A stretch of DNA of 64,000 bases from Candidatus Poribacteria bacterium (GTDB lineage Bacteria; Poribacteria; WGA-4E; WGA-3G): assembly GCA_965198235.1 (NCBI GenBank), contig OZ240248.1, positions 448,001 through 512,000 on the forward strand, read 5' to 3'. The translations under genes and the position numbers were made by a program. The notes beneath the pieces are model-generated. The model had not been told where the DNA came from. It searched no databases and saw only the letters and a list, made by a program, of their open reading frames with translations. Below, in pieces: positions 1,393-47,811 of this stretch (positions within the stretch are counted from its first letter, which is position 1; the number at the start of each line of letters is the position of its first letter).

Positions 1393-1410
1393 ACTTTTAA
1401 TTATTCCTTG

Positions 1411-1645
1411 CGGTTCGGTGAGGTAGGTTGAATGACCAACGATCCTCTCCGTAGATCCGCCCTCCATTTCATTACGGGCTACAACTTTGAACCTTAATCG
1501 ATTGACACAACTCTACGGTTCGGTGAGGTAGGTTGAATGACCAACGATCCTCTCCGTAGATCTGAAGAAACACCCAAGCAAAAACCCCTCCATTTCATTA
1601 CAGGCTACAACTTTGAACCTTAATCGATTGACACAACTCTACGGT
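1411..1645. repeat. Tandem duplication of a 105-bp REP/MITE-like unit; second copy (1516-1641) carries a 23-nt insert
   Basis: CGGTTCGGTGAGGTAGGTTG...CAACTCTA repeated at 1411 and 1516; related inverted copy at 28571-28647. Confidence 0.95.
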
Positions 1646-6642: not shown

Positions 6643-6912
6643 GGAAACCTCGTCAGCGGCAGGACGCAGGGAAGAGGCGAGGTTGGGGAACCTCGCCAGC
6701 GGGGAGGTAGCGTGTTTTTTGTCTGAATCACGGACTGACGCGGATTACGCAGATTTCGCGGATTTTTTATTAGGCATCAGCGGCCGGTGATGGAATGTGC
6801 GGTGGTTGTCTGAACCAAGATTTACAGGATTTTCGGATTTGCAGGATTATAGAACTTTCTTGATTGAAAATTGTCCTTTATAGGATTACCTAAATATTTT
6901 ATTAAACTTCAT
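6643..6912. repeat. Cluster of small repeats: GCGAGGTT..AACCTCGCCAGC palindrome (6676-6700) and two GTCTGAA-led 9-mer (GGATT-containing) tracts
   Basis: ggcgaggttggggaacctcgccagc; gtctgaatcacggactgacgcggattacgcagatttcgcggatt; gtctgaaccaagatttacaggattttcggatttgcaggatt. Confidence 0.75.
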
Positions 6913-6984
6913 CTGGAGTGCGACTAATCGTTCGTTGGGCGATTCAGGGATGGGAGCGGAGTGTCTGTGAGTTTTGGGTTTTGC

Positions 6985-7023: not shown

Positions 7024-7183
7024 AGGACTTACGCAATTTTTCTATGAGCACCTCCGTATGACGCGCCGCTGGCGAGGTGTTTTTGCTGGGGGTTTTTGCT
7101 TGGGGTTTTTGCTTGGGTGTTTCTGTGGATTTCTGCGGATTTCCCCTAGAAACCTCGCCAGCAATGGATGTTGCGTAAGCCCT
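7024..7183. mobile_element. MITE-like element with AGGACTTACGCAA/TTGCGTAAGCCCT inverted ends, enclosing a REP palindrome that carries a stuttered insert
   Basis: 13-bp imperfect terminal inverted repeats; internal GCTGGCGAGGT...AAACCTCGCCAGC arms. Confidence 0.7.
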
Positions 7184-7229
7184 GTCAAGCATAAATGTAA
7201 CTCAAATTGACGGTTTGAAGTGGAGGAGG

Positions 7230-9541: not shown

Positions 9542-9613
9542 AGGTTCGACGGGGCGAGGTGTTTTTGCTTGGGTGTTTCCCTTAAGAAACCTCGCCAGTG
9601 AATTATAATCGGG

Positions 9614-12155: not shown

Positions 12156-12230
12156 TACCCCCGACGAGATTTGAACTCGTGTCGCCGCCGTGAAAGGGCG
12201 GTGTCCTTGGCCAGGCTAGACGACGGGGGC
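12156..12230 (-). tRNA. tRNA-Glu (TTC), CCA not encoded
   Basis: GCCCCCGTCGTCTAGCCTGGCCAAGGACACCGCCC-TTTCAC-GGCGGCGACACGAGTTCAAATCTCGTCGGGGGTA cloverleaf. Confidence 0.96.
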
Positions 12231-12239
12231 AGAAAAATG

Positions 12240-12312
12240 TGAGCCGTACAGGGATCGAACCTGTGACCACCTGATTAAAAGTCAGATGCTCTACCAGCTG
12301 AGCTAACGGCTC
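12240..12312 (-). tRNA. tRNA-Lys (TTT), CCA not encoded
   Basis: GAGCCGTTAGCTCAGCTGGTAGAGCATCTGAC-TTT-TAATCAGGTGGTCACAGGTTCGATCCCTGTACGGCTCA. Confidence 0.96.
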
Positions 12313-25478: not shown

Positions 25479-25502
25479 GCGAGGTTAGGAAACCTCGCCA
25501 GC
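25479..25502. repeat. Uninterrupted copy of the GCGAGGTT-AGGA-AACCTCGC palindromic REP
   Basis: gcgaggttaggaaacctcgccagc. Confidence 0.85.
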
Positions 25503-28570: not shown

Positions 28571-28647
28571 GTAGCCCGTAATGAAATGGAGGGCGGATCT
28601 ACGGAGAGGCACGTGAATGTACAAACCTACCTCACCGAACCGCAAGG
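28571..28647. repeat. Dispersed copy (inverted) of the element at 1406-1482
   Basis: GTAGCCCGTAATGAAATGGAGGGCGGATCTACGGAGAGG and AACCTACCTCACCGAACCGCAAGG match the reverse complement of 1406-1482; only the central spacer differs. Confidence 0.92.
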
Positions 28648-47711: not shown

Positions 47712-47811
47712 TGAAGAAATCCACAGAAATACCCAAGCAATACGCAGAAATCCGCAGAAATCCGCAGAAACACCCAAGCAAAAACCCCTATCAAAAACCC
47801 CAAGCAAAAAC
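47712..47811. repeat. 100-bp stuttered array of AGAAATCCGC / CCCAAGCAAAAAC units
   Basis: Same motif as inserts at 1563-1585, 7079-7146 and 9561-9582. Confidence 0.92.

Follow-up and report, generated by a model that had tools for sequence, protein, structure and literature searches.

The stretch of DNA analysed here, called the window below, covers 64,000 nucleotides of a Candidatus Poribacteria genome (G000:C1:448001-512000). This source genome, G000, comprises 5.17 Mb in two contigs with 48% G+C. At four sites of the window, named A to D, a unit of 22-25 nt was found alone or in arrays. Each unit starts with a 13-nt head, which is followed by a short tail and then by variable bases. The original prediction had noted the motif at these four sites and had named four places in the window where the same kind of host sequence is empty, and both statements held when the sequence letters were reread. 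The features are listed with their window positions.

Site A, 1563-1585, minus strand: a single unit, GTTTTTGCTTGGGTGTTTCTTCA, which replaces CG; its host is a ~120-nt dispersed repeat present as two tandem copies, and the unit lies in the second
Site B, 7079-7148, plus strand: heads and tails, three of each, arrayed within a host hairpin; the first head is GTTTTTGCTGGGG and the other two are GTTTTTGCTTGGG, and the tails are TGTTTCTGTGGA, TTTCTGCGGA and TTTCCCCTA
7069-7078, plus strand: 5' arm of the site B host hairpin, CTGGCGAGGT, of the family CTGGCGAGGTT-loop-AACCTCGCCAG
7149-7161, plus strand: 3' arm of the site B host hairpin, GAAACCTCGCCAG
Site C, 9561-9584, plus strand: a single unit, GTTTTTGCTTGGGTGTTTCCCTTA; the hairpin fills the 72-nt spacer between two conserved genes
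9551-9598, plus strand: host hairpin of site C with its insert (GGGGCGAGGT ... AGAAACCTCGCCAG), -10.6 kcal/mol, z -3.1
Site D, 47712-47811, minus strand: three heads and three tails, then a partial head (TTGCTTGGG, preceded by TGCGTA) and a further two tails; the array begins where the 3' arm of a CCCCAGCGGGG hairpin ends
1441-1470, minus strand: the paralogous counterpart of site A in the adjacent copy of the repeat, without a unit (..GGAGGG-CG-GATCTACGG)
28571-28610, plus strand: a copy of the repeat that hosts site A, here without a unit (..AATGGAGGG-CG-GATCTACGG..)
6676-6700, plus strand: empty hairpin of the site B/C family, GGCGAGGTTGGGGAACCTCGCCAG (GCGAGGT..ACCTCGCCAG type)
25479-25502, plus strand: empty hairpin of the site B/C family, GCGAGGTTAGGAAACCTCGCCAG (GCGAGGT..ACCTCGCCAG type)

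The array of site B folds as a large loop that is closed by the host stem. At site D, Tandem Repeats Finder (TRF) reported a 13-nt array of 3.8 copies and a 10-nt array of 5.5 copies. When the window was searched with the 13-mer GTTTTTGCTTGGG at up to 2 mismatches, 11 matches were obtained compared to 2.17 expected, and none of 100 shuffles reached 11. The region around site A (window 1400-1640) consists of two tandem copies of the ~120-nt repeat (TTCCTTGCGGTTCGG.. to ..CATTTCATTACGGGCTAC), the first empty and the second holding the unit, and the 12-mer CGAACCGCAAGG of this repeat occurs 81 times in G000. Contigs of the public short-read runs X16, X18, X19 and X20 break at the repeats, with, for example, a stop at 6921 and a restart at 7226. 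No contig of these runs spans site B and shows a filled or an empty allele there. The unit arrays therefore fragment short-read assemblies of Poribacteria.

For the genome-wide analysis, four unit types were seeded and merged to 332 regions, of which 291 open with a head. These 291 arrays are the set counted below. The head is GTTTTTGCTTGGG or the variant GTTTTTGATAGGG, the tail reads (T/C)(G/A)TTTC, and the fixed 19-nt core is followed by 2-6 variable bases, mainly pyrimidines and often ending in A. The unit is G/T-rich on one strand. The arrays comprised 178 distinct strings with a median length of 22 nt and a maximum of 195 nt, and had only few internal branch points, after ..GGG, GGGTGTTT, TTTCTGCG and TTTC. 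Behind the TTTC of the first unit, the next three bases were CCC in 35, TTC in 15, CCT in 12 and CTC in 7 of the 90 scorable cases. The unit alone barely folds (0 and -1.9 kcal/mol, with just a 3-bp GGG/CCC pair), and together with its host the insert forms the large loop of a stem. The motif recurs throughout the genome: the exact GTTTTTGCTTGGG was found in 256 copies in 198 clusters, its 12-mers are the most frequent 12-mer family of G000, and the exact heads of the two variants amount to 256 + 112. With crude open reading frame (ORF) calls, which also apply to the transcription orientation given below, 266 of the 327 chromosomal unit regions were intergenic.

The left junction of the arrays was analysed first at the level of the neighbouring bases. 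The array was preceded by GGG in 73 cases, xGGT in 56, AGT in 51, GGGGT in 35, xGGGT in 21, xGG in 15 and by other bases in 40. The predicted fixed start after a G-rich end was thus observed, with 251 of the 291 arrays directly after GG, GGT or AGT. With one representative per left-flank cluster (n=189), the target logo reads R-R-G-G-(T/G)^, where position -2 is G in 87%, position -1 is T in 63% or G in 29%, and position -3 is G in 67% or A in 25%. The right junction was followed in nine pairs of filled and empty sites. In these pairs the insert opens at GTTTTTG after G or T and has the core GTTTTTGCTTGGG(T)GTTT(C), behind which 0-6 variable bases stand. The insert replaces 1-7 bases of the target, such as CG, T, CGA, TGTAA or TGGCTCC. 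The insert size was 22-25 nt in eight of the nine pairs and 18 nt at locus 4. The far end varied from pair to pair, as the description of ragged ends had implied, and neither inverted ends nor a target duplication was present in any filled/empty pair examined, again in agreement with the original prediction.

Since the motif could also have spread together with its surroundings, we asked how often it entered new sites. Explained by descent only, it would be the end or the loop of an ordinary miniature inverted-repeat transposable element (MITE) or of a repetitive extragenic palindrome (REP) that was amplified with its host, and slippage would make the arrays. Half of the left flanks recur in the genome and the unit numbers behave as those of tandem repeats, which is compatible with this explanation. 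However, when the 291 left flanks (40 nt each) were clustered, 189 flank contexts were obtained, of which 160 were singletons, and a paralogous empty copy was found for 108 arrays. Host families with many empty copies exist: in host family 5, 21 empty copies read CACGAG-TT-GATGG and 16 filled copies read CACGAG-T[unit(s)]C-GATGG with the same junction, and the filled copies are on flank subtypes that occur empty too. Orthologous empty sites in other species, one copy inside a coding gene, and the missing inverted ends and duplications also stand against it. Descent only is therefore contradicted, and we regard it as highly improbable.

The orthologous sites were collected with loci from other species (L numbers), which had been retrieved using the canonical 19-mer as a bait. 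When 73 motif sites of other Poribacteria were placed syntenically in G000, 1 was filled in both species, 3 were empty in G000 (L011, L031 and L103), 68 were without the host flank and 1 was odd. All-against-all mapping gave the allele pairs L016/L184, L274/G000, L219/G000, locus 181 of G000/L278 and locus 4/L025. At site C the polarity is known. The orthologous spacer of genome G020 has 49 nt and contains the same hairpin in the empty form. A hairpin of this kind, again empty, is present in G014, empty hairpins of other types are present in G012, G024, G056, G054 and G045, and in G046, G001, G013 and G005 the spacer is just 12-15 nt long. The unit was absent from all 8 short alignable spacers of other species. 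Since the orthologous hairpins elsewhere are empty, the insertion at site C is a derived state of the G000 lineage. Metagenomes scanned with two anchors and a gap for further strain versions of this site gave 0 matches.

The copy in a coding gene was found at L031, where a unit on the minus strand (442-464) changed 7 bases to 22 with a net gain of 15 nt in frame. EPIV is thereby converted to GKHPSKNTA, compared with the counterpart at G000:C1 near 988,100-988,590. Units can therefore add in-frame peptides to proteins. A search for the single non-stuttered master copy that the original prediction had proposed brought up no good candidate among the 73 syntenic sites: only 1 is filled in both species, and the genes adjoining it are ordinary and convergent. 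Taken together, our results show that the units are true insertions that arose in many independent events.

The hosts of the units were then compared with controls. One host is the REP-like hairpin CTGGCGAGGTT-loop-AACCTCGCC(AG), for which 186 CTGGCGAGG seeds were counted on both strands. A forward unit follows 18 of these seeds and a reverse unit about two dozen, and roughly 100-130 were judged by eye to be empty short-loop hairpins. The ~120-nt dispersed repeat is the largest flank cluster with 36 filled copies. Further hosts are a long hairpin whose 3' arm is split by the unit, hairpins of the type that flanks genes for REP-associated tyrosine transposases (RAYT), where the unit is directly after the 3' arm (CCCCAGCGGGG^, CCCCGTAGGG(G/T)^), and older copies of the unit in both orientations. 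Inverted units interrupt the heads of older units at ATACC^C-AAGCAAAAAC (G000:C1 353620, 3568974, 4518194, 2703546 and others), and such inverted self-insertions yield perfect 10-bp palindromes, GTTTTTGCTT...AAGCAAAAAC.

Flank-to-flank stems of at least 6 bp were found in 38 of the 291 arrays (13%) compared to 4.8% of 3000 control positions, which were intergenic and after GGG, GGT or AGT. Hairpins confined to the left flank were not enriched (33 of 291, compared to 12.9% of these controls). The left flank was repeated elsewhere for 166 of the 291 arrays (57%) and for 140 of 600 controls (23%). Repeats and hairpins are thus enriched as hosts, yet other hosts exist. The claim that the insertions are written into REP elements holds for part of the family only, and the target does not stay intact, since 1-7 bases are replaced. 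The insertion sites comprise hairpin loops, hairpin feet, other dispersed repeats, earlier copies of the unit and, once, a gene in frame.

We then analysed how the arrays grow. In the 87 multi-unit arrays the numbers of heads and tails were correlated (rho 0.52), with a mean difference of 0.06 and a standard deviation of 1.28. The head-to-head spacing was 13 nt in 76 cases, 15 nt in 47 cases and 14 nt in 1 case. The 15-nt spacing can be read as a head that is broken after GT, with the remainder TTGCTTGGG located downstream. The partial heads were directly after TGCGTA in 37 of 46 cases, and 31 of the 40 arrays with a partial head have a GT stub as well. Stub and partial head co-occurred in 32 arrays compared to 26.3 +/- 1.9 in length-matched shuffles, and 17 of 5000 shuffles reached 32. 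Against the interrupted head, 24 of the 55 stub arrays had no partial head, and since the arrays share descent they do not count as independent trials. The rule that the spacing is 13 or 15 but not 14 nt is only partly explained. The assumption that each extra head is matched by one junction of GCGGA with TTTC received no support beyond array length. Because this matching failed, plain slippage of the 13-nt and 10-nt units remains likely too.

Slippage predicts that new units are copies of their neighbours. At locus L236 the sequence reads ..TTTATTTGCTTGGG-TG-TTTCTTA.. and at L221 it reads ..TTTATTTGCTTGGG-[GTTTTTGCTTGGGTGTTTCTGCGGA]-TTTCTTCA.., where a canonical 25-nt unit replaces TG. Because the canonical unit had entered an older degenerate unit, the new head in L221 is no slipped copy of its neighbour. 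For plain slippage the evidence points both ways: the canonical unit beside a degenerate one speaks against it, whereas the TRF arrays are clean and the counts of 13-nt and 10-nt junctions are those predicted by length. Identical composite arrays were observed in unrelated hosts, and at loci 296 and 185 of G000 the same composite is present where other species hold a single unit, which argues that whole arrays are copied or converted between loci. An exchange of loop cassettes by microhomology of the stems was rejected, since the closing complement was no better than in permutations with 4- and 5-mers. The results show that arrays grow at least partly by whole canonical units re-inserting into older copies. 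The stutter that had been proposed to build the arrays is compatible with the 13-nt and 10-nt units, but not as the sole source, given the re-insertion at L221/L236, the pairing of stubs with partial heads and the shared composites.

Such a stutter had been ascribed to a telomerase-like reverse transcriptase that adds repeats at nicks from a small RNA template. The head ends with GGG, as many targets do, which would permit realignment, and the numbers of 13-nt and 10-nt units vary as those of tandem units. However, a realignment at GGG leaves the preference of the 15-nt over the 14-nt spacing (47 compared to 1) unexplained, and the canonical unit beside the degenerate one shows separate events rather than a single stuttered synthesis.

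The distribution of the motif was tested in the genus and beyond. In a first sample of 24 genomes of the genus the motif was present in 24 of 24 with 5 to 183 copies each, whereas among 16 genomes of the order that belong to other genera only 3 gave any match, with 1-2 each, which is the chance level. A second set from the genus comprised 41 genomes, 17 of them assembled in at most 3 contigs (G000 included); here GTTTTTGCTTGGG was found in 40, with G052 as the exception. The head variant GTTTTTGATAGGG was present in 37 of the 41 in very different proportions. Among the assemblies with at most 3 contigs the number of heads ranged from 0 to 368 per genome. A scan with one genome per species gave at least 113 stretches; among the 80 listed, 77 were titled Candidatus or uncultured Poribacteria, and the remaining three were two metagenome-assembled genomes (MAGs) titled 'uncultured bacterium' and one labelled Pyrinomonadales. 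In the latter (L073, labelled as Acidobacteriota) an exact 19-mer match was observed, which may stem from mis-binning of the contig or from chance. A metagenome scan added at least 120 more stretches. Since the motif is present in 40 of the 41 genomes, in short-read MAGs as well as in chromosome-level assemblies, it is no assembly artefact.

The exception G052 is a single contig and 96% complete. Both head variants and exact tail units are missing from it. It keeps 61 host-hairpin seeds, compared to 65 in G024, and 5 Y1_Tnp genes. The unit is therefore not intrinsic to the host hairpins, and G052 serves as a natural negative control in which the target hairpins are kept and the unit copies are missing. 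Taken together, the best explanation of the motif is a genus-specific family of ultra-small, non-autonomous insertion units, which are among the smallest mobile DNA units seen. Two side observations concern other small elements. G000 has a 36-nt CRISPR-like repeat, CTTGAAACGAAAAGCATCTCGATTACGAGATTGAAA, whose k-mers were counted 56-58 times, and the two tRNA genes at window 12156-12312 (minus strand) are the sole Rfam matches at the gathering threshold in the window.

The involvement of a reverse transcriptase was tested with the RVT_1 profile. It gave 0 matches in G000 and was found in 24 of the 41 genomes of the genus. The 17 genomes without RVT_1 include G000, G014, G018 and G024, which are the richest four (224-368 heads) among the assemblies with at most 3 contigs, and likewise G006 and G004. 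The last five of these six genomes are assembled in 1-2 contigs and have 110-255 heads. Conversely, G016 and G047 have 2 and 3 RVT_1 matches and just 10 and 18 heads, and the RVT_1 count was not correlated with the copy number of the unit (rho -0.08). The telomerase-like enzyme, which the original prediction had named first, is thus strongly disfavoured and in our view has very little chance of being the cause. Prim-Pol, its second candidate, was absent from the five genomes searched (G000, G024, G014, G052 and G016), as were Ku and the IS110 DEDD domain. A canonical reverse transcriptase and Prim-Pol are therefore very unlikely as the cause.

The HUH enzymes were tested with the Y1_Tnp and Y2_Tnp profiles. 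Y2_Tnp was not found in the same five genomes, but the control of this search was equally without a match. Y1_Tnp was present in all 41 genomes including the unit-free G052, and its count, in which the RAYT subfamilies are pooled, showed a rho of 0.16 with the copy number. The presence of HUH enzymes thus does not track the unit. G000 has six Y1_Tnp genes, three RAYT-like and three IS200/605-like. The RAYT-like genes (G000:C1 near 606918, 1898775 and 3853757) have inverted REP hairpins on both sides (GCACCCCGTAGGGGTGC / GCACTCCAGCGGAGTGC then TATGTCTATAGA), and a TnpB-like ORF follows each of the Y1 genes at 119838, 4381488 and 4792784 (G000:C1). No unit was found within 420-470 nt on either side of the six genes.

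These findings bear on the possibility that an HUH enzyme, RAYT or the TnpA of IS200/IS605, mobilises the unit in trans by nicking single-stranded DNA after the G-rich target near hairpins and then transferring or copying the unit. Entering right behind a short motif, with neither inverted ends nor a duplication, fits the habits of IS200/IS605, the Y1_Tnp genes are at hand, three of them with inverted REPs, and some hosts are REPs of the RAYT-flanking type with the unit directly after the 3' arm. Cleavage of single-stranded REP DNA at the GTAG tag by a recombinant RAYT is described in PMC3733652. On the other side, the unit has no hairpin of its own (0 to -1.9 kcal/mol), its right end varies and the target loses bases. 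In addition, hairpins in the left flank are not enriched, no copy lies beside the six Y1 genes, and G052 has 5 such genes and no copy. We consider mobilisation in trans by these enzymes rather unlikely, and a role of an HUH nickase as the nicking factor is possible.

The two junctions lead to our own proposal for the mechanism. One junction is exact and one is ragged, few bases are lost and there are no terminal repeats; therefore a target-primed copy-in is preferred to a two-ended transposition. The unit would be inserted by copying and not by excision and transfer. The 3' end that becomes free behind the G-rich target would prime a DNA polymerase on another copy of the unit, so that the start would be fixed because the priming end lies right after the target. 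The synthesis would halt or switch back at varying points of the pyrimidine tail, and the far end would be sealed imprecisely. The idea of a polymerase that extends the 3' end of the target, which was part of the original prediction, is consistent with the exact and the variable junction, whereas the enzymes that had been named for it are not supported.

Hints to the template came from single loci. At L031 the bases left of the junction had changed to AGCGGT, a flank that is typical of other copies, and at L011 the insert ends with TAG, which is the loop of another host family. Together with the shared composites, these hints suggest that the template is another genomic copy. A copy-in that is primed at the target and uses other genomic copies as the template is the account that we tentatively favour, although we hold it with less than even confidence.

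Several observations weigh against this copy-in. The donor-flank cases of L031 and L011 are single anecdotes, and no enzyme or nick was found that could supply the nicking or priming factor. The terminal pyrimidines showed no specific complementarity to the left flank of the host (29 4-mers observed compared to 27 +/- 4), so that microhomology of the stems is no general rule, and the 13 of 291 arrays with inverted self-insertions at ATACC^C clash with a G-rich target. The number of 13-nt head junctions equalled that of the GCGGA and TTTC junctions in 24 arrays, compared to 30 expected from length. The regional orientation bias of the units in G018 and G024, two relatives assembled as single contigs, is not accounted for either. 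In G018, 57 units were on the plus and 12 on the minus strand between 0.6 and 4.17 Mb and 8 and 21 elsewhere, with boundaries that were set after viewing the data, and three successive regions of G024 had 11+/35-, 18+/9- and 8+/19- among the first 100 of 124 matches. G000 itself showed no bias by replichore, and at scales of 10-100 kb its units followed neither the local GC skew nor the majority strand of the genes (all p > 0.27). Between its co-directional genes 113 units were sense and 82 antisense, a weak result. Finally, the unchanged 13-mer and its GATA variant, found in 40 and 37 of the 41 genomes, are not easily explained if any existing copy can be copied, and point to a conserved master template or to a dedicated factor. 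That the insertion events share a uniform core is partly a matter of ascertainment because the loci had been baited with the canonical 19-mer.

Since the core is unchanged across the genus and G052 is empty, a dedicated factor or a conserved template is favoured by this part of the evidence. A dedicated, unrecognised enzyme with a conserved template or recognition site would write the 19-nt core onto G-rich 3' ends. The fixed start and the variable stop would follow from it, and the core and the second variant are unchanged although the flanking intergenic DNA cannot be aligned. The range from 0 to 368 heads and the targets without units in G052 also fit. However, no candidate gene emerged, with RVT_1 missing from 17 of the 41 genomes and Prim-Pol, Ku and IS110 DEDD from all five searched. 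The sole site that is filled in two species lies between ordinary convergent genes, and the composites and flank bases were seemingly copied from dispersed copies. We therefore regard a dedicated enzyme as a minority possibility.

A bolder form of this idea is an undescribed DNA-writing system without reverse transcriptase, in which a dedicated nickase/polymerase, or a nickase that recruits the host polymerase, would use a conserved short template to extend exposed G-rich 3' ends, at hairpins as well as in other places, by the 19-nt core. The idea is speculative, and we would give it about one chance among several. If it were true, the system would leave the smallest autonomous-looking insertion footprint known, and its gene should be discoverable because the complete congener G052 has all the targets and no copy. 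A factor of this kind, writing a short sequence at defined 3' ends, would be a new chemistry of mobile DNA. The question of the mechanism is tractable: there is a sharp target rule, one exact and one ragged junction, orthologous filled and empty sites, a range from 0 to about 370 copies between near-complete genomes of the genus and a negative control. Gene association across these genomes could name the factor.

The units were compared with known systems. Part of the hosts are hairpins of the REP/REPIN-RAYT type, RAYT-like genes with inverted REPs are present, and one unit lies in frame. In contrast to REPs, which are imperfect palindromes with a GTAG tag in many cases, the unit is not palindromic and is a guest in such palindromes in a minority of cases (38 of 291). 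It is also absent from G052 despite the hairpins and Y1 genes, and across the genus Y1 counts and copies gave only the rho of 0.16 mentioned above. IS200/IS605 elements insert directly behind a short target, have no inverted ends and duplicate no target bases, but need subterminal hairpins and two exact ends. The unit resembles them in its entry after R-G-G-(T/G)^ with neither inverted ends nor duplication, and differs by the lack of hairpins and by its varying right end. From DDE-type MITEs it is distinguished by the absence of terminal inverted repeats and duplications in every filled/empty pair. Insertion sequences that target REPs, such as IS1397, are kilobase-sized and protein-coding and have inverted ends and duplications; the unit shares with them the REP hairpins as insertion targets. 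That REPs can lie in frame inside genes is stated in PMC3733652, which together with PMC3116915 was the source for the REP/REPIN comparison.

One fixed junction, a variable end, few lost target bases and short templated repeats are features that the unit shares with target-primed and theta-type synthesis. In target-primed synthesis by telomerase or non-LTR (long terminal repeat) retrotransposons, and in insertions of the polymerase-theta type, one junction is fixed, the other is variable and the target loss is small. The richest Poribacteria genomes differ by having no RVT_1, a profile that may miss divergent reverse transcriptase families, and Prim-Pol and Ku were absent from the five genomes searched. 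The same 19-nt core at hundreds of sites in 40 species is unlike sporadic repair scars of the theta type.

The statement of the original prediction that no described element behaves in this way is not supported, since the small dispersed repeats (SDR) of cyanobacteria are a close parallel. SDRs are about 21-27 nt long, non-coding and found within other repeats; they became known in 2008, and no mechanism of their mobility is known to have been described. Elhai et al. reportedly described SDR1-8 in that year from Nostoc and its relatives; their units are said to nest in copies of themselves, and a shared predicted fold is said to exist for SDR4-6. The Poribacteria unit is likewise short (median array 22 nt), non-coding, in high copy number, confined to one lineage, embedded in other repeats (166 of 291) and self-nested (L221/L236). 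It differs by the lack of an own fold, by an unrelated sequence in a different phylum, and apparently by its exact and ragged junctions, lost target bases and head/tail arrays. Passages of PMC4390886 place SDR5 precisely between bases 3 and 4 of HIP1, and passages of PMC5861425 report no SDR outside the Nostocaceae. A link of the unit to HIP1 was rejected, since GCGATCGC occurs only 137 times in G000. Full-text literature searches brought up no account of units like these, either for Poribacteria or for the loops of REPs. In conclusion, the Poribacteria unit is an analogue of the SDRs and no member of them, because the sequence family and the lineage differ, and it represents a second, unrelated case of mobile repeats of about 20-27 nt, in an uncultured phylum of sponge symbionts.

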